A DNA stretch of 32,000 nucleotides from Candidatus Jordarchaeales archaeon (lineage in GTDB: Archaea; Asgardarchaeota; Jordiarchaeia; Jordiarchaeales; Freyrarchaeaceae). Location: the NCBI GenBank assembly GCA_038858525.1, contig JAWCFL010000011.1:1-32000 (forward strand), written 5' to 3'. The first letter of the stretch is position 1, and each line of letters begins with the position of its first letter. The notes under the pieces are model-generated. The model had not been told where the DNA came from and did not search any database. It saw nothing but the letters and a program-made list of their open reading frames with translations. Below, one piece after another: positions 11,622-23,083 of this stretch. The position numbers and the translations under genes are program-made.

Positions 11622-11725
11622 TTTAACCTCCTCCGCCAGTTGGCAGAACTCTCTTGAAAGATATAAAAAAGATATAAAATTAAATACTTTTTTATTATTG
11701 CTTATTGCTTTGCTGTTGTGGGAGC

Positions 11726-12775
11726 TTAGTGAGATACGAGCTCCTCTTGGCAGTGGAGCTTCCATTCCAGTTTGCATTTACAGTTAAGATGTTCTAGTTG
11801 CTTTGCGTCTTGAGTTACGGAGAACTTTTTTAGGGCAGCGTCTATTTTCCTGTCGCATAACCCGCAGTTGTGTGGTCCTCTGGGGAGCCCTGAAGCTGTG
11901 GGCGTGCAGGTTAGTGTGGCGTCAACTTCTCCTTGCACGTCTAAGATTATTTTTACTAGGCTCCAGAGCCAAGGTGGCCTGTAGCATCCTTTTTTCCATA
12001 AGAGTTCTACAAAGGTGCCTTTGTGAACGGTGCATGGGTTTAGGGATATGGCGTCTACGTTCATCTCTGAGAGGTGCTTAATGGATCTTTTCACGTCGAA
12101 TATTGCTTCAGCTTCTCTTAGGAGAGGAGGCTTAACTAGAAGGTAAACTTTGACTCCTGCTTCGAGGCGTCTCAGTATTTCCAAGCTGGCTTTGAAGTCG
12201 TTTAGGGAGAAGCCTTTGTTTATGATCGACCTGACTCTGTCGCTTGTTGATTCTAATCCTATGGCGACTGTTAGTCTTTTCTCCTTTAGGGCGTTAATAG
12301 CGTCGCTTATAATGTCTTCCCTTATGAATTCGGGTCGTGACTCAACTATTACTTCTTCGACTTTGGTTTCACGCGATAAAAAGTGCAGTATCTCGTCTCT
12401 CACTTGTTTAGGAACTTCTTTTTCATCAAAAAAGCTTCCTGAAGTGAATATTTTCACGCTTATTGGAGGAGGGATGGCTGCCAGTTTTTCGTAGGCCAAC
12501 TTGAAATGGTCGAGAAGAAGGGAGGAGGACGGGGTTGACTGAGAGCCGTCATAGACGTATCCGCACATTGAACAACCACCGGAGGTGAGAGCCCAATGGC
12601 ACCCGACGGTAGGTAGGATTATTACTAGGGCATGCCCTTCCTTTCCGAGGACGCGATCCGGCTCGACCCAGGATTTGTGAGGCATACGTTCAGGAGGTTT
12701 CCTTGATTTAAGGTAATCTTCTCTTAGTTTGAGGGAATAGCTTAAAATCAGACGGCTCAGATCGCTGGCGTTCAT
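11726..12775 (-). CDS. raSEA: Archaeosine biosynthesis radical SAM protein RaSEA
   Basis: GCHWALTSGGCSMCGY, VKIFTSGSF, VESRPEFI, AIGLES, VKVYLLVKP, YRPPWLWS, RGPHNCG; coupled to arcS. Confidence 0.9.
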   Translation of the reverse strand: MNASDLSRLILSYSLKLREDYLKSRKPPERMPHKSWVEPDRVLGKEGHALVIILPTVGCHWALTSGGCSMCGYVYDGSQSTPSSSLLLDHFKLAYEKLAAIPPPISVKIFTSGSFFDEKEVPKQVRDEILHFLSRETKVEEVIVESRPEFIREDIISDAINALKEKRLTVAIGLESTSDRVRSIINKGFSLNDFKASLEILRRLEAGVKVYLLVKPPLLREAEAIFDVKRSIKHLSEMNVDAISLNPCTVHKGTFVELLWKKGCYRPPWLWSLVKIILDVQGEVDATLTCTPTASGLPRGPHNCGLCDRKIDAALKKFSVTQDAKQLEHLNCKCKLEWKLHCQEELVSH

Positions 12776-14733
12776 TGTTCATCCCACCGCTTGGCGTGCT
12801 TCAACTTTACTGCTACACCACGGCTAAGTTTGACCATTTCCTCCCCATTTAGGATCGCTTCACCTATTCCGATTAGCTTTCCGGATGAGTCTAGAACGAA
12901 GACAACGTCGCCGGGCCTTATTTGAGGGTCGGCGTCCTCAACCCCCGGCACCATGACAGAAGAACCCTTAATCGAGCTGCCTTTAAAGAGCACCCAGTGG
13001 CTGGTTGCTATTCGTTCGCCTCCCTCTAATGTCGGCACTACGAAGCCCGTTAGAGGAGATATTTGGGCGAGAAGCGTTTCTCCGTCATAGAGAAGCTTTT
13101 CTCCCTTTACTTTGACCTTCACAGTAGTAGAGTCAGTAGCTAGTTTTTCTCCTGCTCTAGGGCCAAACTGGTAGTCGGCTGTCTTTCTGAATGTTTCCTT
13201 TAAACGGTCTATTTCTTGACATTCTCGATGTGAGAAACGCGATAAAACAGACCTTAAAGAGGACAAGGAGGAGGGACTGGTAATGCTTCCCTCTACTTCA
13301 GTATAGATTATTTCTCTTCCCGATATTTCGCTTGCCTTTTTACATGCTTGAAGATATCCCCCATCAAGATGTGCTATTATGGGGCAGTCGCTTGGAAACT
13401 TATCCAAGTATCTTGCGATGCACTCAGCGGCGATCCTTATTTCTTCTTGATCCCATTCTCCGGTAACAGGAACATCATAATGCGCTGCAGGATATACTTC
13501 TTCAAGCTCTCGGGGAACTAAGCCGAGAGGGGATGACACTATTCCCTCACATAACCCCTTTATCCCTGTTTCGATGATGGCTTTTCTAAATAGCTTGTGT
13601 GAAGGTGAGCTTGAGTATGGTTTTCTGGCTGAGCAGGGTAAGAGAAGGACTGCCGTAACGTTCTTGGGGGGAGTGTAACGTGCGGCAATTCTGGTTCTAA
13701 AACGCTCAATGGATGGTTTATGGTAGGATTCCGGACCAATACAGTAAACCTTAGTTTTGCTTGAAACAGGGGTATATTTTTCGAGTAGCGGATAGGCTTC
13801 TTTGTCCGATATTCTGAGGAGTGCTGCTAATTCTGGTGATTTATGGCAGGCTTCTTCTACACCTTCACGAAGGCGTGACTGCCTTATTAGAAGAGATGCT
13901 TTTCTGAGGATGCTTAAAGCCGAGAGCAAGTTGTGATTTAAGAGAAGGCGAAGGCGTTCATCGCGGTTCGGTAATGATTTTTTTAGAAGGAGGCATGCTT
14001 CACAAAAACATGGCAACTCTTTAATGACGTTGAACTGATGCCACACGCCATCGAAGAAGTACATGTCTTTTAATGTTGCATCGATGATAATAGACGTGTC
14101 AAAAAGGTCTATGCCTAAGTAGACCAAGTGGAGGTAGTATGAGGGAGGAATTCTTCCTGAGGCGTATAATATGGCATTAGGACCAATAAAATAGTTAATA
14201 TCCTGTAAGAAAGCAACCAGGTCTCTCAGGTTATGGAAAGCTTCCTCTAATCCTCTTATGACGTAGAATCTAAAGCCAAGTTTACTTACTTCTGAAAGGA
14301 AATTTCTCCTGAGAGACCTAGAGGAAAAATAGTAGATTGGCATTGCTACTGGTAAGTCCATCATCGCTTTCCCAATAGCTTTAGCGCCTTCAAGCAGTTC
14401 ATCTAAAAGTGAGGCGATTATTTCACGTGGACCTTTAATGGGAGGGCATGGGGCAATAAGAACGTCTGCATCTAAGCTTAGCCCGTATTTTACGGCCTCG
14501 TCTAAGCTGGATGTTAACGGGCTCATGAGGGGAACTAGCTTAAATTTTTCTTTAATGTGGGAAAGTAATTCTTTCTCGTGCGTCGTGATTAATTGGGCTT
14601 GGGAAGGAGGAGGATAAGTGTCGTCAACAAAGTAAAAAACGAGGTTTGGTGTTTCAAAAGATCTTGAACCTATTTTGACACGAGTAATTCTTCCAGGCCC
14701 ATCGTGACGAAGAACTTCAAACAATGAAACCAC
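12772..14733 (-). CDS. arcS: Archaeosine synthase ArcS (TGT-like domain plus PUA)
   Basis: HDGPGR, LLLPCSARKPYS.SPSH, SSPLGLVPRELE..YPAAHYDVPVTG.W, ADYQFG, C-terminal PUA (ADPQIRPGD). Confidence 0.92.
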   Translation of the reverse strand: MVSLFEVLRHDGPGRITRVKIGSRSFETPNLVFYFVDDTYPPPSQAQLITTHEKELLSHIKEKFKLVPLMSPLTSSLDEAVKYGLSLDADVLIAPCPPIKGPREIIASLLDELLEGAKAIGKAMMDLPVAMPIYYFSSRSLRRNFLSEVSKLGFRFYVIRGLEEAFHNLRDLVAFLQDINYFIGPNAILYASGRIPPSYYLHLVYLGIDLFDTSIIIDATLKDMYFFDGVWHQFNVIKELPCFCEACLLLKKSLPNRDERLRLLLNHNLLSALSILRKASLLIRQSRLREGVEEACHKSPELAALLRISDKEAYPLLEKYTPVSSKTKVYCIGPESYHKPSIERFRTRIAARYTPPKNVTAVLLLPCSARKPYSSSPSHKLFRKAIIETGIKGLCEGIVSSPLGLVPRELEEVYPAAHYDVPVTGEWDQEEIRIAAECIARYLDKFPSDCPIIAHLDGGYLQACKKASEISGREIIYTEVEGSITSPSSLSSLRSVLSRFSHRECQEIDRLKETFRKTADYQFGPRAGEKLATDSTTVKVKVKGEKLLYDGETLLAQISPLTGFVVPTLEGGERIATSHWVLFKGSSIKGSSVMVPGVEDADPQIRPGDVVFVLDSSGKLIGIGEAILNGEEMVKLSRGVAVKLKHAKRWDEQ

Positions 14734-14742
14734 CTGTTCAGA

Positions 14743-15372
14743 TTAGTCAGTTACTCGAAACCATTCTCTAAGCGAGTTTCCCACCGCGAGGCTGGAGAGT
14801 TCATCTAAAACTTGGAGTAAGTAGACTTTTTGAGGGAAAAAACGCGTGTTTGCTGCCTGATCGAGAATTCGAAGAAGAGCATAGTACTTAGTTCGTCTTA
14901 TGGATCCCCACGTTTTTTTATCGACGGAATTTCTAGCCTGCTTGATCGTTTCTTTAAAGAGAGGCGGACCTTCAAGTTTCAAAGCAGTGAACGCCGCCAT
15001 TAAGAGAGCTATAGATGAAAACGTTTTCCCTGCTTTGGAAGGTTTAGAAGAAGCTGCACGATAGCCTTTGAGGAAACATTCCAGTGCATTTCTAAGATAA
15101 CCTTCAGCGAAGAGACAATCACCTGCTTCAACATATAATGCAGAGGCACGAATAGGCATGCCTTCAAGCTCAAGGAAGGAAGCGCATACTAAAAGCGGGG
15201 GAGAACACTGCTTATGAACGCCCAATTGATGCATTGACGAGACAGTGTTCAGAATGGTTCCTAAAGCATTTATAGCTTTGGGGTAAAGCTCTATAAGCTT
15301 TGAGCTCTCTCCTTCTTTGAGAAGGCGCGTGTAATATTCTAATATTCGCGTTGCCTCTTCCAATAGCGTCAC
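14743..15372 (-). CDS. Hypothetical alpha-helical (TPR/SNAP-like) protein
   Basis: 209-aa ORF co-oriented with arcS; ASALYVEAGDCLFAEGYLRNALECFLKG resembles a TPR-type helical pair. Confidence 0.6.
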   Translation of the reverse strand: MTLLEEATRILEYYTRLLKEGESSKLIELYPKAINALGTILNTVSSMHQLGVHKQCSPPLLVCASFLELEGMPIRASALYVEAGDCLFAEGYLRNALECFLKGYRAASSKPSKAGKTFSSIALLMAAFTALKLEGPPLFKETIKQARNSVDKKTWGSIRRTKYYALLRILDQAANTRFFPQKVYLLQVLDELSSLAVGNSLREWFRVTD

Positions 15373-15459
15373 ACTCCGCTTAAAATGGAAAAACGCCCCC
15401 CAATTTTTGGAGACCGGATGGCTACATTTATAGTTAGCGCGTCTATTTGAGTTTTAAAG

Positions 15460-16488
15460 GTGAACGAGGCGATGAAGATGATTTCTAACTGCAATGTGTT
15501 CATATCTCATTCGAAGGCTGTCGTCTTAGGGAAGGAGACCGTGTGCGATGGACATGAAGATGGTTATAGGTTGAGAGTTGTTACTCATGCTCATTCAGAC
15601 CACCTTTACGGCTTAAGAGAAAGTGTCAGGAAATGCGACTTAGTTATTTCGACAAAAGAAACAAAGGATCTCCTGATGGCGCTCGGAAGGAGAGAAGCAC
15701 GTTTCCTTGTGGCAGTCAACGGTGGCGACGCTATAAGGTGTGGGGAGGAAAAAGTGAGGTTAATTCCGGTAGAACACATTTTGGGGACTGCACAGGTCCT
15801 TGTTGAAAGAGAGGATGGGGTGCGTTGTCTTTACAGTAGCGATTTTAGAATCCACAGCGCGCCAATAGTTAAATGCGACGTCCTAGTTCTCGATTCAACT
15901 TATGGTTCACCTGACAACGTGCGGCCCAAAATGGAGGAGGTCCACAGCGCATTTTGCACAATAGTTGAAGACGCCTTAGCTAGAGGGGAGCCGGTCCATG
16001 TGTTCGGTTTCATAGGAAAAGTTCAAGAAGCGATGGCTCTCCTAAGAAGAAAAAAGGTAGATGCGCCATTCGTCGTCTCGCCCAGAATGTATAGGGTATC
16101 AAAAATATACGAGAAGTACGGTTTTTGTCTAGGAGAGTACTACTCATCAGAAGGACATGTTGGCAGAAAAGTGCTGGAAAATGACCTTCACGTTGCTTTT
16201 TTCTCGCCTCTTGAAAAACACCGCTCAAACATAAGCTGCGTGCAGATAGAACTAACAGGATGGCTCTTCAAAACCCCTTACACGAGAATAGGAGAGAAAA
16301 ACTATGTGGTTTCGCTCAGTGGCCACTCCGACTTTAACCAGTTGATAGAATACGTCGATAGATGCAGGCCAAGTTACGTTGTAACAGACAACTCTCGCGG
16401 CGGTCAGGCCGTGAAACTGGCTAAAGAAATAGAAAAAAGGCTCGGAATACCTGCTAGTCCCTCTCCTCCAAAAGAGGTCACACGTTAA
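15460..16488 (+). CDS. Metallo-beta-lactamase/beta-CASP nuclease
   Basis: THAHSDH, EHILG, YSSDF, LDSTYG, SLSGHSD motifs. Confidence 0.85.
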   Translation: MNEAMKMISNCNVFISHSKAVVLGKETVCDGHEDGYRLRVVTHAHSDHLYGLRESVRKCDLVISTKETKDLLMALGRREARFLVAVNGGDAIRCGEEKVRLIPVEHILGTAQVLVEREDGVRCLYSSDFRIHSAPIVKCDVLVLDSTYGSPDNVRPKMEEVHSAFCTIVEDALARGEPVHVFGFIGKVQEAMALLRRKKVDAPFVVSPRMYRVSKIYEKYGFCLGEYYSSEGHVGRKVLENDLHVAFFSPLEKHRSNISCVQIELTGWLFKTPYTRIGEKNYVVSLSGHSDFNQLIEYVDRCRPSYVVTDNSRGGQAVKLAKEIEKRLGIPASPSPPKEVTR

Positions 16489-18853
16489 GGTTGTAACGCC
16501 TGCGATCCAAAAGCTCTTGCTTTTTCGGGTCATTCCATGTAGCTTTGACCCCTTGAAGATATCCTGTAATGCGGGAGTATATTTCGGCTCGCCGGCTGCC
16601 ACATTTTGGACATTTAAACTCGACTAGTTCTACAGGTGAGTCGAACTGATGGTTTCTCCAGTCTATTGTTCCCTGCGCATGGCAGTCAGGGCAGACCCAT
16701 ATGTCTAACGTGAAGTCGAAGTATGCGGTTAACGTGTTTCGAGCAATTTTAACGATGAACTTCCACAAAGCGTAAGGGTCGGGTTGCACATCTTCAAGGA
16801 AGATATGCTGTAGGAAGCCTCCTCCAAGTAGGGGAGCAAACATTGCCTCTTTCTTTATCCTTTCAGCTAAGGGGATGTCGGCATCTACCGGCTGGTGAAC
16901 CGAGTTAGTCAGGTACACGTTTGGGTATTTACCTCTGAGGTATGGTCTCACTTCTGGGTATCGCTCGTAAAGTATTCTTGCAAGCTTCCCAGCCGCCGAC
17001 TCAGCTGGCGTTCGGGTAACTTCAAATATGAGCCCTGTTTCTTCCGACCATTCCTTTGCGAGGTTGTTCATAAACTTCAAAACTTTGACTGCGAACTTTA
17101 ATCCTTCCTCATGCCAGAGTGGGTATCCTGTTACAATTTCCACAGTCTCAGCAAACCCTATTGTACCTATAAGCAATTCTCTTTCTTCAGGGATTATCAT
17201 GTCCTTGCCGTTTGGTCTTTTAACATTATACAGAGGAGCTAATCCAAGGCGCTTAATGCGCTTAACTACCTCATACCTGTGAAGCAAACTTGGAACCGTT
17301 ACTTCGTTTATTATTCTTCCAAAGTCGTCGAAGAACGCGTCTTCGTCTTGACCGATTGTTCTGGCAGCTGAAGCAACGGGGTTTGGAGTGTCCATCTGTA
17401 TAGCGCCGTAAACGGCGTTTCCGGACAGGTATTCTTCAACTTGCTCCGGAGTTTTAGCTCCCCAGGTGTGGGAGCAACAGGAGACGCAGCCGCCGATTAT
17501 CTTTTTCCGCCAGTTCAGGTAATTGACGAAGTACGGTAACCCATACTTTGCCGTCAGTCTAGCGGCCCAAATGTATGCTTCTTCGAATTCAGGTTTCATC
17601 CACTCCTCTCTAAGCTCAATGTTAAGCTTCGGGTAGTTGAACAGCTTTCCGTACCTGTCACCATAGTACATGACTTTCATGAACTCGATGAAGTAGGTTT
17701 TAACTTCATCGACAAAGTCGCCGTAAACATACTTTTCGCTCATCTTACCCCCAGGAAGTATCACAGGTTCGTTCATGAACTCTTTCTTTATTCCTGGACC
17801 AATATCTATCGAGGTAAACGGGACTTGGCCTCCTCTCGCAACATATTGCTGTGTGGCGATATATGGAGTGTGCTGGCATGCTTGCTCAACCTCGCGCTGC
17901 GAAACTCGCCTCAGAACATACGCAACAATGGCTTGAACAATTTCTCTCGGAATCTGATTGAACCTTTGATAAAGCTCATCGGTTAACCCTAACGCAGGCT
18001 GGTTCATCTCGGCAATTAATTGCGCGGCGCTCTTCAACACTTCTTCTTGCTTGAATCCTCTAAGATACCAAGCTATGCTTTCCATCCAGTTATGGAATCC
18101 CTGGCCTCCGGACATGTTGCTTTGCCAAGACGCCAGCCAAATCGCAGCGTGATTAACGAAAACCGTTAAGTGTTTCGGTGGACCAGCACTCGACGAATGC
18201 ATTCCTCCCAAGCCGTCGGGCTCTAGACCCAAGACGATGAAGAGGCGTGGATCCCAAGAAGCACAGTAATCCCTTATACTCGTATATTCTCTATCTTTAT
18301 GGTAATTATCACCGTTTAGATGAGCGTCAGCTATGTTGGTGTCGAAGAACAGCCTTTTTCCTGTGGGAACAGTTACCTCTAAATGTCCAGGCAGAGTTAA
18401 GTAAGTGTGTTCAGTCATCACACGGTCGTAGATCACCTTGGCAATGGTCTCCGGATTTATCTGAAGATTAGCGTTCCAAGTATGCTGTAGAGGATTAATG
18501 ATCATCTCATTAAGGTCATAGATCGGTATACCTATCCTAGTGTATTTTTTCCTAGCCTCCACTAGTCCCATTTCGGCCAGCACAGAGCAACACATCTCTC
18601 GTATCATTGGACCAGACAGCCACTGTATGTTAGATGAGAGTATGCGTTTGACAACGCTCCTAGCAACTTCAGATGCTACATCCCTGCTGACTCCAGCCTC
18701 CTTAACAAGGCTGTTAATGATTTTGGTAACATCGAATGGTTCTATCATTCCTCTGTTTGTCCTTACAGCAGGCATCAATGAGTTCCAAAAGGTTTCGTCT
18801 TTTTCTTTTCGAGGCGACTCTTCTTCCGCATGATCAAAAGCCGGTTTCACCAA
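16478..18853 (-). CDS. nrdD: Class III (anaerobic) ribonucleoside-triphosphate reductase with ATP cone
   Basis: ATP cone (EPFDVTKIINSLVKEAG), GGQ, SCC finger, TPAES, YLTNS, CxxC/CxxC Zn site, glycyl radical loop YSRITGYLQ. Confidence 0.95.
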   Translation of the reverse strand: MVKPAFDHAEEESPRKEKDETFWNSLMPAVRTNRGMIEPFDVTKIINSLVKEAGVSRDVASEVARSVVKRILSSNIQWLSGPMIREMCCSVLAEMGLVEARKKYTRIGIPIYDLNEMIINPLQHTWNANLQINPETIAKVIYDRVMTEHTYLTLPGHLEVTVPTGKRLFFDTNIADAHLNGDNYHKDREYTSIRDYCASWDPRLFIVLGLEPDGLGGMHSSSAGPPKHLTVFVNHAAIWLASWQSNMSGGQGFHNWMESIAWYLRGFKQEEVLKSAAQLIAEMNQPALGLTDELYQRFNQIPREIVQAIVAYVLRRVSQREVEQACQHTPYIATQQYVARGGQVPFTSIDIGPGIKKEFMNEPVILPGGKMSEKYVYGDFVDEVKTYFIEFMKVMYYGDRYGKLFNYPKLNIELREEWMKPEFEEAYIWAARLTAKYGLPYFVNYLNWRKKIIGGCVSCCSHTWGAKTPEQVEEYLSGNAVYGAIQMDTPNPVASAARTIGQDEDAFFDDFGRIINEVTVPSLLHRYEVVKRIKRLGLAPLYNVKRPNGKDMIIPEERELLIGTIGFAETVEIVTGYPLWHEEGLKFAVKVLKFMNNLAKEWSEETGLIFEVTRTPAESAAGKLARILYERYPEVRPYLRGKYPNVYLTNSVHQPVDADIPLAERIKKEAMFAPLLGGGFLQHIFLEDVQPDPYALWKFIVKIARNTLTAYFDFTLDIWVCPDCHAQGTIDWRNHQFDSPVELVEFKCPKCGSRRAEIYSRITGYLQGVKATWNDPKKQELLDRRRYNLNV

Positions 18854-18859
18854 CTAAAA

Positions 18860-19141
18860 TCACCCTTTCATCAATATGTTTTTCAAATCCTCGTAGGATA
18901 CAGGATCCCCTAAAACTAGAAGCCGCATACCGCCTTCCTCAATAGCAACTATGGCTGGCGTGCTAGCAATGTATATCTGATTTTGAAGCAACTCGAATTC
19001 AAGTTCCTCCGGAAGCCTCGTGACGTCAAATATTTCTAGCGGAATGCGAAGTTCCTCACTAACTTTCTCGGCTGCCTTCTTGGCTACGGGACAATTAGGA
19101 CAATTTTCTTGTGTGAACACCAAAAGCTTGCTCACCTTCAC
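18860..19141 (-). CDS. Thioredoxin/glutaredoxin-like protein (NrdH-like)
   Basis: FTQENCPNC and cis-Pro STPAI motifs; directly upstream of nrdD; SD GGGGAGGT. Confidence 0.85.
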   Translation of the reverse strand: MKVSKLLVFTQENCPNCPVAKKAAEKVSEELRIPLEIFDVTRLPEELEFELLQNQIYIASTPAIVAIEEGGMRLLVLGDPVSYEDLKNILMKG

Positions 19142-19456
19142 AACTTGAACCTCCCCATAAAAGGACGCGGATAAAGTCTAATCGTCATGTTCATCATTTT
19201 TTATTTACCACACGCACTTTTAAAAGTGGATAACACCTGTTTCCTTTATCAGTTAAGAGTTAAAAGTAAGGAACGAATTTAAAAGTTTCTTTAATTTTTA
19301 AAGTAACGAATCATTTAATGCATAGTTGCTTCAACTTTGGAAAGCAAAATAAGCTTATATAATATATAAATTCGAAGCGTTAAGGTGTTATTTCTAATTT
19401 ATACGGCCAAAAGTGTTGCCGAACCTTGAGCTATGTGAAAAAGGTAGTTTGAATCA

Positions 19457-20083
19457 TTAAGGTTTTTCTTTTCCTTTAAAGTATTTTGCTACCACATACA
19501 TTTCAGCGCTTTGTTTTCTTGATGCAGACGGCTTGGTTGTGTAGACCTTTTTGAAGGAAAGGCGGACCTCGTCAAGCAGAGACTCGTATCCGGCGCCTTG
19601 AAAAACTTTTAGAACCAAACTGCCGCCTTCCCTTAAAAGCATTTTAGCGATGCTTAGGCTTGCCCTAGCAAGTTGAAGTTGGCGTTCGTGGTCTAAACTC
19701 CATATTCCACTAACTTTAGGCGAGCAGTCACTTAGCACTAAATCCACTTTATTAGTCACTCTTAAAATCTCATGTACAATTTTTTCGTCTTGGATATCGC
19801 CTTTTATGAATATGACTCCATTCATTCTTTCTATTTCGGATAAGTCAACGCCGATAACCACGCCCTTATCACCTAAATACTCTTTTGCTACTTGGAGCCA
19901 GCCTCCGGGGGAGCAGCAAAGATCCAAAACAGCGTTTACACCTCGGAAAATATCGAATCTTGTAGCGATTTCCTTTAATTTGTAGGCAGCTCTAGAGCGG
20001 TAACCTTCCTTGCGGGCTCTAAAGTAATAATAATCTTTTCTTCTGCTCAAACTTCTCAGCTTCCCTTTGTTACAAGAATACAA
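19457..20083 (-). CDS. rlmE: 23S rRNA Um2552 2'-O-methyltransferase (RrmJ/FtsJ)
   Basis: KEGYRSRAAYKL, VLDLCCSPGGW, VLSD.SP.VSG, KVFQG, KPSASRK.SAEMY; start uncertain. Confidence 0.93.
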   Translation of the reverse strand: MYSCNKGKLRSLSRRKDYYYFRARKEGYRSRAAYKLKEIATRFDIFRGVNAVLDLCCSPGGWLQVAKEYLGDKGVVIGVDLSEIERMNGVIFIKGDIQDEKIVHEILRVTNKVDLVLSDCSPKVSGIWSLDHERQLQLARASLSIAKMLLREGGSLVLKVFQGAGYESLLDEVRLSFKKVYTTKPSASRKQSAEMYVVAKYFKGKEKP

Positions 20084-20160
20084 GTAGTCTTTTCTTGTTT
20101 CAAGAAAAAGTTTTAATTAAGTGCATTATCTTTTTTTGGGTTAAGGGTGGGCTCTGCTTG

Positions 20161-21009
20161 GTGGAAGAGGAAGAGTTTTATAAGGCTAAGATCTCGGAGC
20201 TTGAAAAAAAGCGCCTTGACTTGCAGGAGGAGCTTGGAAGGCTTAGAAAGCATGCTGAAAAGCATAAGGAGTTAAGAGATAAGAAGAACAGTGAAGTGAA
20301 AGCAACAATTCAAGCATTAAAAGAGGTTAGAGAGAAAAGAAAGGAAAAAATCGGGGAGATGAGTGGACTTAAAGAAGAACTAAGAGAAGTTAAAGACAAG
20401 CTTAGAAAAGCTATAGAGGAAAAGAGGAAAATAAACTGGAGAGAGTATCCTAACGGTGAAGAAATTAAACATAGGATTGATTGTTTAGAGTGGAAGATCC
20501 AAATTACTCCGCTTTCACTAGAAGAGGAGAAAAAAGTTGTGGCTGAGATAGCTAGGCTTGAGAGGGAGGCGCTAGAGGCAGAAGAGCAAAGAAAAGCATA
20601 TGAAAGAGCATGCCAGCATATTGGAGAGCTCGAGACTAAGAGGGAAAGCATAGTTTCGAGGATAAATGCGTTAAAGGAGGAGATTGCAGAGCTTGACGCG
20701 AAAATCAATGTTATGGAGGAAAAGTTTCGTGCGGCGAAGGAGGAGGCTGACCAAGCGCATAGAAACTATTTAGAGTTGTTCGAAAAAATAATCAAAATAG
20801 AGAACGAGTTAGAGAAGCTGGTTGAGGAGGAAAGGATCTACAGGAGAATGTACTTCAGAGTATTTGAGAGAAAAAAAGAGGAGGAAGAGAAAGAGAAGAG
20901 AAGAATTTTGGAGGAGAAAGCGGTCGCAATAAGGGAGAAGCTTAAGAGGGGAGAGAAAGTTAACATACATGAGTTAAGAATCATTTTTCTTGGGGAGGAA
21001 GAAAGATAG
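20161..21009 (+). CDS. Conserved archaeal coiled-coil protein (COG1340-like)
   Basis: Heptad E/K-rich sequence, LEWKIQITPLSLEEEKKVV..I motif, C-terminal KLKRGEKV; GTG 20161 preferred. Confidence 0.75.
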   Translation: MEEEEFYKAKISELEKKRLDLQEELGRLRKHAEKHKELRDKKNSEVKATIQALKEVREKRKEKIGEMSGLKEELREVKDKLRKAIEEKRKINWREYPNGEEIKHRIDCLEWKIQITPLSLEEEKKVVAEIARLEREALEAEEQRKAYERACQHIGELETKRESIVSRINALKEEIAELDAKINVMEEKFRAAKEEADQAHRNYLELFEKIIKIENELEKLVEEERIYRRMYFRVFERKKEEEEKEKRRILEEKAVAIREKLKRGEKVNIHELRIIFLGEEER

Positions 21010-21010
21010 T

Positions 21011-21472
21011 TTACTCCTCGAAGGTTGCGGTTGCTCCTTCTGCTTCTTCAACCGAGACTTTAAGATGAAGGTTAGTTGGTAGAAGCCTCTTTAATTGATG
21101 ATGAATGTATTCTGCTATTTTTTCTGCTGTTGTGGCTTCTATGGGTAAGAGAGCAACGTCGTTTCTCGGAAAAACATATCTTCGATCGCTAAGCATGATG
21201 CAGATTTCACCTTCATCTTCCTTTAATTTTAATCCCTGAGACTTAGTTGGTACTAATACACGATGGTCCAACGGTTCGCAAACAGACTTCACAGCGCTTC
21301 GTATGGTGAAGAAGTCAACTACCATCTGCTCCAAATTCAACAGAGGAGACGACGCTTCCACCCGTACTTTATAGTTATGGCCGTGGAGGCGGGCGCATTT
21401 TTCGTGTGAAAGCAGAAAGTGGGCTGCTGAGAAGACAAGGTCTGCTCTTTCAATAGTAATTTTGTATGGCAA
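21011..21472 (-). CDS. queD: 6-carboxytetrahydropterin synthase
   Basis: FSAAHF, CARLHGHNY, MVVDF, LDH, TTAEKIAEY, VSVEE. Confidence 0.9.
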   Translation of the reverse strand: MPYKITIERADLVFSAAHFLLSHEKCARLHGHNYKVRVEASSPLLNLEQMVVDFFTIRSAVKSVCEPLDHRVLVPTKSQGLKLKEDEGEICIMLSDRRYVFPRNDVALLPIEATTAEKIAEYIHHQLKRLLPTNLHLKVSVEEAEGATATFEE

Positions 21473-21492
21473 TGTAACTTTTCCCTCCTTTT

Positions 21493-22119
21493 TTAGAAGG
21501 TTTTAGACTTTGCGACATCTTTATCTATATCTAGGATTTCATGCCGGTATCGTCTAGCGAGAGAGACAGCGAAGTCTTCGATGTCTTCTCTTTTAAATCC
21601 TAGGTCTAAGAGTGATGCGACTTTGACGGCTGGAGGGGCACCCTTAGAGGAGATGTTAAAAGCAAAGTGCATTTTGCCGGAAGCAGGGGATACTGTTGCG
21701 ATGCCCACGTTGAGTTTGCCATTCTTAAAGTAGAAGTCTGTGCCTTCACGTCTCAACTTCACATTGCAGGTTTCTTCTATAAGCTCTTTGAAGAGAAACG
21801 CAAGAATCCGGAGACGATGATACATAAGACGTAGTGAGGGGGGCTGCTGGTCGAAGTGTTCGATGACGATACTTACTGCTTCGTCCGCGCATATAACTGG
21901 GTGTCCTTTTCCTCCTTCAATAATAAAGTCCTTTACATCTACAAGCTCAGAAGCTTCAACTCGAAGTGGGCCGCTAAAGATCACCACAGAGTCACCTTGT
22001 AGGCCAAGTTTCCTAAGAGCCCAGAGGGGTTTAATTTCTTCGCCGGTGTAAGTCATCTTACATATGAAGGGGAGTAGTGCCACTATTATTGGCTCTTTCT
22101 CTAATATCTTTAGCTCCAA
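21493..22119 (-). CDS. DUF366 family protein
   Basis: YTGEEIKPLWA...GDSVVIF.GP, LVD.KD, IVIEHFD, GTDFY...KLNVGIAT, MHFAFNI. Confidence 0.8.
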   Translation of the reverse strand: MELKILEKEPIIVALLPFICKMTYTGEEIKPLWALRKLGLQGDSVVIFSGPLRVEASELVDVKDFIIEGGKGHPVICADEAVSIVIEHFDQQPPSLRLMYHRLRILAFLFKELIEETCNVKLRREGTDFYFKNGKLNVGIATVSPASGKMHFAFNISSKGAPPAVKVASLLDLGFKREDIEDFAVSLARRYRHEILDIDKDVAKSKTF

Positions 22120-22130
22120 TGTGAAGCCTC

Positions 22131-22978
22131 CTAGAGTATGCCTAGAAATTTGTGAGTCTGTACGGATAGTGAAACGTTTTCGCTACCCAAATAGCGTGCA
22201 GCTGCTTCAGTAAAGATGCAGAGTTGTTGGAAACTTGGGGGGAGATAACCGTTTTTAGGGGTTACTGGCTGAATACATATAGGACAATTTATTCTTGAAA
22301 GCTCGCGTGAATACCATTCAACGTTTTCTAGTTTAGTATTTGAAGTAACAACGACTTTAGCAAAGACCGCCACACCAGCATCTGAAAGTATCTTTATCGT
22401 TTCCAGCTCTAATTCGACAAGTTTCCTCCAGTTTTCTGCAGCACCAGCTGACTCATCCTTAATGTCGCAGCAGCAGTAGTCAAGCAGATGAGAGATTCTA
22501 GCAGCATGTGCAGGCATCGATCCATTTGTCTCTAAATACAGCTTGAAGCCCTCATTTTTAAGAGATTCTGCTGTTGAAGCTAGGAACTCCGGCTGGAACA
22601 ATGGTTCTCCGCCTGTCAGAGATATGGCGTGAGTGTCTGGCGAGTAAAGCCTGCGAGCCCACTCCGCTATAAAGCTTGGCTCAACAGGGTTTACGAAGCG
22701 AAGGTTTTCGTTAGTAGGCGTCACTATTTTTAGGTAGTCGGGATTAGGCTTTATGGCGTGGGGGGTTTTACGCTTTTTCGAGTCGCACCACCCACACCCT
22801 CGCCTGCCAAAAGCTCCAAGCCCAATGTTACAGCCCGAGAAGCGGATAATTCGACGGCGTTTAAGCCTATATCGTCCGCCGCCCATAATTTGACCCCTTT
22901 ACGCTTCCACCCTCGCCTTCACCCTTCCTAACCGGAAGATTGGTAGGAGGAGAAAATCTCACTTATCCATCCTTTCAC
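22131..22978 (-). CDS. queE: 7-carboxy-7-deazaguanine synthase, intron-split: exons 22978-22940, 22917-22869, 22849-22782, 22766-22131 (263 aa spliced)
   Basis: Spliced N-terminus MKGWISEIFSSYQGEGGSVKGSNYGRRTIFIRFSGCN...CGWCDTPH; later LTGGEP, LETNG, IQPVTP, QTHK; SD GAGGTG (22992-22987) 8 nt before GTG 22978. Confidence 0.9.
22767..22781 (-). other. Probable in-frame BHB intron 3 in queE mRNA (15 nt, TCGAAAAAGCGTAAA)
   Basis: Central helix UGCG/CGUA, bulges AC|U and AA|A, exon stem GG/CC; removal converts WCDSKKRKTPH to WCDTPH; only 1-bp intron stem. Confidence 0.65.
22850..22868 (-). other. BHB intron 2 in queE mRNA (19 nt, AGGCTTAAACGCCGTCGAA)
   Basis: Central helix CGAU/GUCG, bulges AU|A and AA|U, intron stem GGC/GCC; retention gives TAG; removal gives ACG ATA T|TT ATC CGC TTC = TIFIRF. 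Confidence 0.88.
22918..22939 (-). other. BHB intron 1 in queE mRNA (22 nt, TCTTCCGGTTAGGAAGGGTGAA)
   Basis: Central helix UACC/GGUG, bulges AA|U and AA|G, intron stem CUUCC/GGAAG; contains an in-frame TAG; removal gives CAA|GGC GAG GGT = QGEG. Confidence 0.88.
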
Positions 22979-23083
22979 AATCGCACCACCTCTTTAACAG
23001 TGAAATTCTCAGGAAAACAAAATTGCGAAAAAAGTTTAATTAGGCTTCTTGGGTTAGCGTGTGATTGAGAGGGGCGGTTAAGA

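Follow-up and report, generated by a model that had tools for sequence, protein, structure and literature searches.

The DNA analysed here is a window of 32,000 nucleotides (nt; positions 1 to 32,000 of contig JAWCFL010000011.1, assembly GCA_038858525.1) from the Asgard archaeon Candidatus Jordarchaeales archaeon, the minus strand of which carries a predicted queE gene, encoding the radical SAM enzyme 7-carboxy-7-deazaguanine synthase. The gene is interrupted by three short inserts, all of which fall within 156 coding nt (the first 52 codons) and have the form of bulge-helix-bulge (BHB), or tRNA-type, introns. The third insert, of 15 nt at 22767-22781, is very probably the last of three mini-introns in the queE pre-mRNA, and would be spliced constitutively, although it lies within an apparently intact open reading frame (ORF). 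The predicted gene model is given below, where the caret marks each cut.

22131..22978, minus strand: whole queE gene (7-carboxy-7-deazaguanine synthase, radical SAM), four exons and three mini-introns, predicted spliced product 263 aa
22976..22978, minus strand: probable GTG start codon, with GAGGTG before it and a start region (M/V-KGW...) conserved in relatives
22940..22978, minus strand: exon 1, 39 nt, ending ...EIFSSYQ
22918..22939, minus strand: intron 1, 22 nt, UACC AA^U (CUUCC-loop-GGAAG) GGUG AA^G
22869..22917, minus strand: exon 2, 49 nt, GEGGSVKGSNYGRRTI plus the first base of a Phe codon
22850..22868, minus strand: intron 2, 19 nt, CGAU AU^A (GGC-loop-GCC) GUCG AA^U
22782..22849, minus strand: exon 3, 68 nt, (F)IRFSGCNIGLGAFGRRGCGWCD, bearing the Cx11Cx2C cluster motif
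22767..22781, minus strand: intron 3, 15 nt, phase 0, in frame and without a stop, SKKRK if retained
22131..22766, minus strand: exon 4, 636 nt including the stop, TPHAIKPNP... to the C-terminus

A single splice rule, which requires a helix of 4 bp between two 3-nt bulges, each of them cut after its second base, serves for all three inserts, and its application gives a predicted product of 263 aa, the N-terminus of which (VKGWISEIFSSYQGEGGSVKGSNYGRRTIFIRFSGCN...) agrees residue for residue with the uninterrupted homologues. The removal of intron 2 by this rule recreates the conserved Phe codon of QIFIRF with no free choice, which provides an independent check that the rule is right. The stretch downstream of the GTG at 22978-22976 is KGWISEIFSSYQ, and the annotated N-terminus (MGGGRYRLKRRR) is an out-of-frame reading. 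With a hidden Markov model (HMM) of 94 uninterrupted homologues, the score is 346.3 bits for the product from which all three introns have been removed, compared with 341.1 bits when intron 3 is retained and 282.2 bits for the annotated ORF. The spliced product carries both EIFSSYQGEG and Cx11Cx2C. The annotated ORF matches Pfam Radical_SAM at 38.2 bits, above the cut-off (the NCBIfam QueE models match weakly, below their cut-offs), a profile search finds 6NHL and 4NJG, which are solved structures of QueE, at 1e-10, and the close database relatives are named as QueE of Freyarchaeota/Jordarchaeales. The predicted enzyme is a QueE of the radical SAM type.

Read on the minus strand from 22781 to 22767, the third insert is TCGAAAAAGCGTAAA, which encodes SKKRK between ...GCGWCD and TPHAIKPNP... 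and, within the QueE motif CxxC-D-T, separates the codon for Asp from that for Thr. In solved QueE, the Thr that follows Cys-Asp is reported to be a ligand of Mg2+ (Dowling et al. 2014), a point that carries no weight in the argument here. It is contained in the ORF at 22131..22886 on the minus strand (251 aa), which reads ...GCGWCDSKKRKTPHAIKPNP..., and the deletion of the 15 nt at 22767-22781 yields ...WCD/TPH.... The original prediction, which was made from these letters without database searches, had placed a BHB here, and its coordinates, its sequence, the ACU and AAA bulges and the UGCG/CGUA strands all proved correct, as did the change from CDSKKRKTPH to CDTPH on removal. Four metagenome runs on hot springs, each from a different study, have contigs with identical DNA, without indels, which makes an assembly error unlikely, although at least three of these runs are possibly sources of the assembly. 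The parts of the motif are as follows.

22784..22787, minus strand: central BHB helix, 5' strand UGCG in exon 3, invariant in 20 of 20 sequences
22769..22772, minus strand: central BHB helix, 3' strand CGUA in the intron, CGCA/CGCG/CGCC/CGCU in relatives
22783-22781, minus strand: 5' bulge AC^U, 3 nt
22768-22766, minus strand: 3' bulge AA^A, 3 nt
22788..22795, minus strand: outer helix h, 5' strand GUGGGUGG in exon 3
22758..22765, minus strand: outer helix h, 3' strand CCCCCCAC in exon 4, in the T-P-H codons

The two 3-nt bulges lie on opposite strands with a helix of four base pairs between them (UGCG/CGUA, including one G-U pair), which is the arrangement that defines a BHB, whereas the flanking helices are present only in a relaxed form, that is, as hBH or bulge-helix-loop rather than the strict hBHBh'. 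The outer exon-exon helix (GUGGGUGG/CCCCCCAC) forms seven of its eight pairs, and the inner helix consists of one C-G pair, which closes a loop of 6 nt. Compared with shuffled sequences, the local fold has a greater stability (z = -3.5, with one of 200 shuffles equally good), mostly due to the exon-exon helix.

BHB geometry by itself is no evidence for an intron. Of the 2.09 Mb of this genome, 1.51 Mb is ORF interior, and there a motif scanner that recovers all three of the queE introns found 8,025 motifs of equal or better quality (5.3 per kb). Decoys with the wrong bulge sizes (1+5, 2+4, 5+5 nt and so on) were equally common. These frequencies would favor the view that the five residues are an ordinary, lineage-specific insertion in the protein, with no intron at all and a BHB-like shape that arose by coincidence. 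For one fixed position and length, the chance frequency is about 1.6e-4, and the shape acquires meaning here because the alignment gap fixes both of these independently, and because of the comparative evidence from the class to which the organism belongs (Jordarchaeia/Freyarchaeia).

This comparison includes 20 distinct queE sequences, derived from 11 genomes of the class, all of those searched having a QueE, and from nine further distinct sequences among 12 contigs of other collections, 11 of which were reached through look-ups of truncated database proteins and one (L083) through a metagenome scan. The sequences split into two families, f1 and f2. In all 20 of them, an insert lies exactly between the Asp and Thr/Ser codons, with lengths of 15, 16, 17 (in five), 27 (in three), 29 (in five), 30, 31 (in three) and 32 nt. 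Only five of the 20 lengths are multiples of three, and three of these five inserts contain an in-frame TAG or TAA, so that 18 of the 20 are frame-breaking or stop-bearing and must be removed for the Cys-cluster exon to join the remaining frame. When the canonical cuts are applied, WCD/(T/S)P is regained in each sequence of the class, and a full-length QueE of 262-267 aa results in all 22 loci in which the three introns can be delimited (all but L102, the exception lying in its intron 2 pattern). In the closest congener (78% amino acid identity), intron 3 is 16 nt long and the called ORF reads the Cys-cluster exon out of frame. The copy in the window is one loop base shorter than this and has one C-to-U change that preserves the pairing (G-C to G-U), in a window that is 81% identical overall.

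The original prediction held that a frame-preserving BHB intron was hidden in an apparently intact ORF, and the class comparison supports this. Rather than sharing the same five residues without BHB potential, the close orthologues carry inserts of 16, 17, 27, 29, 30, 31 and 32 nt that agree with it in boundary, helix and bulges, and over the range of 15-32 nt, 18 of 20 cannot be translated through. A simple protein insertion is hard to reconcile with relatives in which the inserts break the frame or bear stops, and differ in length, yet share the codon boundary, the helix and the bulges.

The structure is conserved along with the position. The 3' strand of the central helix follows the pattern CG(C/U)N, both bulges are always 3 nt, and the three inner pairs of the helix are kept in all of the sequences, whereas the outermost pair is U-A, U-G or unpaired (a mismatch in six of 20). 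In f1 the outer helix pairs GUGGGUGG with CCCCCCAC and in f2 CAGGUG with CACCUG, and one f2 sequence (L105) has a double compensatory change, CAAGUG/CACUUG (G-C to A-U), which alters two amino acids. Compensatory exchanges of U-A to C-G also occur in the inner hairpin, the inner helix of which has 3-5 bp in the f2 copies. Paired cells make up 93% in f2 and 88% in f1, compared with 30-67% when the partners are slid by one to three columns, although the covariation within each family is modest, given that most pairs never vary. These pairs were counted per family, as a joint MAFFT alignment of the 20 intron regions put the central helix's 3' strand in the wrong place between the families.

The other two introns are equally widespread. 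Intron 1 has a length of 19-31 nt in the relatives, with covarying hairpin arms (CUUCC/GGAAG, CCUUCC/GGAAGG and CCCCC/GGGGG), while intron 2 has a length of 18-38 nt. In each of the 20 sequences, reading through intron 2 leads at once to a UAG, which spans the final base of the exon and the first two of the intron, so that this intron can never be hidden.

Beyond the class, the site is uninterrupted. The 94 database proteins all read C..CD(S/T) directly, and the 12 most frequent tripeptides after the last Cys are all D-S-x or D-T-x (DSP in 32, DTP in 22); the original prediction had named CDT as the usual sequence at this point. The metagenome scan with protein alignment recovered almost only distant, uninterrupted homologues, which served as outgroups; of these 79 loci, approximately 70 extend far enough in the upstream direction, and each of them continues directly through C..CD(S/T). 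The 19 loci examined from other Asgard families have ...WCDSP... or ...WCDT... without exception and without extra residues, and when 201 Asgard genomes were sampled, a single open frame of 269-318 aa without stops was present in each of the 34 outside the class that encode this QueE. No extra residues were found at the intron 3 site among the approximately 180 uninterrupted homologue loci and proteins examined, and the five-residue gap that the original prediction expected in an alignment with orthologues is thus present.

A further control is provided by synteny, given that the window is syntenic with contigs of two congeners, at 81% and about 70% nucleotide identity. Across the 34 ORFs of the window, 89 indel clusters lie at least 75 nt inside an ORF, and 85 of these are multiples of three, as would be expected of protein insertions. 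The exceptions are queE intron 3, in both comparisons, and two sites near the 5' ends of stop-to-stop frames, which are close to or upstream of the probable start codons. On these alignments, intron 3 of queE is the only true ORF-interior site in the window with a length difference that is not a multiple of three, and the insert thus behaves unlike coding sequence. Taken with the low ratio of non-synonymous to synonymous change (pN/pS of about 0.12), which disfavors a pseudogene status for the genes of the relatives, this makes a mere insertion of five amino acids highly improbable. An in-frame length difference of 30 nt at 11656-11699 was considered as a second hidden intron, and was rejected, as the site lies between two genes.

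The possibility that the genes are decaying, or that the inserts are handled during translation, by programmed frameshifting or ribosomal bypass, rather than by RNA splicing, was also weighed. Three interruptions in so short a coding distance might suggest decay, and early cases of introns in cbf5, another archaeal gene, were once confused with translational frameshifting (PMC2738675). The exons upstream of intron 3 are, however, under strong purifying selection in both families, the pN/pS of exons 1-3 (150 nt) being 0.13 within f1 and 0.11 within f2, despite their different DNA frames, which means that the cluster-binding exons are translated. All 20 sequences share the three sites, the endonuclease cut rule accounts for every insert to the nucleotide, and frameshift sites do not have 27-38 nt and several stops, as some of the inserts do. 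The gene also stands in an intact preQ0/archaeosine neighborhood, and both decay and translational handling can hardly be credited.

This neighborhood, at 11726-22978, contains queE together with DUF366, QueD (PTPS), an ArcS-like protein (with TGT, DUF5591 and PUA domains) and another radical SAM gene. Interspersed among these are genes for an anaerobic ribonucleotide reductase and an FtsJ methyltransferase. An ORF of 304 aa at 20095-21009 on the plus strand, which has no Pfam match, is conserved in both congeners. A search of the window (1-32000) by ARAGORN reported no tRNA.

The enzymes that such splicing would require are encoded in the genome. Two genes with an EndA domain (PF01974) score 110.7 and 80.6 bits, at L014 1474-2049 on the minus strand and L015 1189-1785 on the plus strand (contigs C3 and C43). 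One of them has the catalytic Tyr/His/Lys context and, among solved structures, is best matched by the catalytic alpha subunits of crenarchaeal heterotetramers (3P1Z_B, 3AJV_B and 2ZYZ_B), while the second, a paralogue, has no catalytic His and has an acidic N-terminal extension. RtcB is also encoded (601 bits). The EndA pair suggests a heterotetramer of the (alpha-beta)2 type in an Asgard archaeon, with a subunit composition predicted from the two sequences. Relaxed motifs are reported to be cut only by the (alpha-beta)2 and epsilon2 EndAs (PMC5829648). A broad specificity of the enzyme matters here because this copy of intron 3 is relaxed, its inner helix being the one C-G pair.

The anatomy of the introns, their conservation, the logic of the frames, the selection that acts on the exons and the genes for the enzymes are observed directly, whereas cleavage, ligation and constitutive splicing are inferred. 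In the proposed mechanism, the UGCG of exon 3 would pair with the CGUA in the 3' part of the intron, inside a longer helix formed between exons 3 and 4, and this fold would expose the bulges AC^U and AA^A, with four base pairs separating them. EndA, made up of the catalytic subunit and the paralogue lacking the His, probably as a broad-specificity heterotetramer, would cut after the second base of each bulge, and RtcB would join the exons to give ...GCGWCD/TPHAI..., as in all of the uninterrupted homologues. The intron would be ancestral to the class, its length drifting freely between 15 and 32 nt, and in this organism a loop shorter by one base than that of the closest congener leaves, by chance, 15 nt without a stop. 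Gene callers would read through and report a spurious SKKRK, because an intron of this length without a stop leaves the frame open.

One sequence feature beside this motif is recorded in its own right. The 10-mer GGTGGTGCGA is present twice within approximately 200 nt on the minus strand, at 22981-22990, where it overlaps the Shine-Dalgarno-like GAGGTG just 5' of the GTG start, and at 22783-22792, where it forms the 5' side of the intron 3 BHB. Upstream of its own start, the closest congener (L004) likewise has GGGTGGTGCG, which the more distant relatives lack. The repeat may be due to chance, or may be an alternative pairing partner for the 3' strand of intron 3.

A number of points weigh against splicing of this particular copy. 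The insert is in frame, and nothing in this genome alone forces its removal; the read-through product still has C-D-S, a motif common in the homologues, and removal raises the HMM score by only 5 bits. The motif is the weakest of the class, with its one-pair inner helix, which makes it effectively a bulge-helix-loop, and the G-U in its center, and the minimum free energy fold at 37 C retains the outer helix and not the exact central helix. A search of sequencing runs for positions 22131-23000 listed no RNA run, and the protein database is without the spliced form, the cluster of the annotated ORF having one member and the matches including no close relative of 263 aa.

Several of these points would favor an exonised former intron, in which a BHB intron of the class is no longer cut, or is cut only in part, and SKKRK has become a basic loop of five residues after the cluster motif, in one longer QueE or in a mixture of two isoforms. 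This copy is both in frame and free of stops, and such a hidden state is easily reached, given that one relative (L010) is only two loop substitutions away from its TAG-bearing sisters. Nevertheless, the 16-nt intron of the congener is equally minimal inside, with one C-G pair closing a 7-nt loop, yet must be spliced, and the copy considered here has kept its central helix, its two bulges and its outer helix intact, the sole substitution in the helix, from C to U, being one that preserves pairing. In addition, none of the approximately 180 uninterrupted homologues tolerates extra residues at this point. Exonisation is therefore regarded as unlikely, and constitutive removal of the 15 nt remains the preferred reading. 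A related and distinctly doubtful idea, prompted by the fact that only this one of the introns is in frame, is that the activity of EndA could set the ratio of the spliced form (CD-TPH) to a retained form with the basic SKKRK loop beside the iron-sulfur cluster. If true, this would represent alternative splicing that gives rise to protein isoforms in an archaeon, and would tie the output of a tRNA-modification pathway (preQ0/archaeosine) to the capacity of the tRNA-splicing machinery.

The frequency of hidden introns can be estimated from the same data. Among 60 distinct intron instances in this gene family, only three are in frame and free of stops, that is, the 15-nt intron, intron 3 of L010 and intron 1 of L011, and the short distance between L010 and its TAG-bearing sisters indicates that the hidden state is an accident of drift. 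No second hidden intron was seen in the 34 ORFs of the 32-kb window in comparison with the two congeners. The original prediction had supposed that many more such introns could sit inside apparently intact genes, which, as far as this is testable, was not borne out. The scan of coding sequences for BHB motifs that it had proposed also lacks power. When 1,814 ORFs were scanned by motif only for hidden in-frame introns, with lengths tallied modulo 3 and six decoy bulge geometries, there was no excess of the true geometry at any stringency. Similarly, a scan for loci at which removal of a BHB joins two open frames returned approximately 3,000 candidates for the real geometry and for each decoy, mostly ordinary gene junctions, with no enrichment even at high stringency.

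The closest known system is that of the BHB introns in the cbf5 pre-mRNA of Crenarchaeota (Desulfurococcales and Sulfolobales), which have 16-44 bp (Yokobori et al. 2009, PMC2738675, in which the work of Watanabe 2002 on cbf5 introns is cited). Some of these keep the frame, as in Stetteria (33 bp), Staphylothermus (36 bp) and Ignisphaera (39 bp), and some were ignored or mis-annotated in genome records. In both cbf5 and queE, short introns of the tRNA type lie in coding sequence, in hosts with a heteromeric, broad-specificity EndA (inferred for the queE host). The cbf5 gene of Crenarchaeota has one intron, whereas queE, in an Asgard phylum, has three, the third of which, at 15 nt, is just below the range in cbf5. 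The cbf5 intron splits the codon of a catalytic residue, and its retention would clearly be lethal to function, while intron 3 of queE is in phase 0 and its read-through keeps a plausible C-D-S. The splicing of cbf5 was shown experimentally, whereas that of queE intron 3 is deduced from comparison.

In Freyarchaeia and Atabeyarchaeia, 92-95% of the tRNA genes contain introns, in many cases more than one and in non-canonical places (Valentin-Alvarado et al. 2024, PMC11291895), which implies an endonuclease that accepts many contexts. This is the same lineage, with the same presumed enzymes, as that of the queE intron, although the report covers tRNA introns only, whereas the substrate in queE is an mRNA, in which the reading frame matters. 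A more distant parallel is the unconventional splicing of the HAC1/XBP1 mRNA, by IRE1 cleavage and joining by tRNA ligase or RtcB (reviewed in PMC4090602). As proposed for queE, this is a protein-only, spliceosome-independent removal of a very short mRNA intron, sealed by a tRNA ligase, although the nuclease is IRE1, acting at two stem-loops, rather than EndA at a BHB. The splicing of XBP1 is regulated and shifts the frame, whereas intron 3 of queE has no sign of regulation and leaves the frame unchanged. The XBP1 intron is 26 nt long.

No report of BHB introns in Asgard protein genes was found in the literature searched. The idea of a frame-keeping BHB intron is already published for cbf5 (PMC2738675), and queE is an instructive case for annotation rather than a new principle. 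The public queE protein records of the class (P0002-P0007 and P0012-P0034) are wrong throughout, as they either start after intron 3 (175-227 aa) or have an out-of-frame N-terminus (251-264 aa), and none has the iron-sulfur Cys motif. Given that an intron can leave an ORF intact, the public records for the gene in the window contain five residues that are probably never translated. For detection, length differences that are not multiples of three between close relatives, inside clean ORFs, provide a route that works, while motif scans do not. In the literature searched, tRNA-type splicing of a protein-coding message in archaea is confirmed only for cbf5 in Crenarchaeota, and the case of queE would add a metabolic gene in a hot-spring Asgard archaeon, of the lineage closest to the eukaryotes, with three such introns conserved across a whole class.

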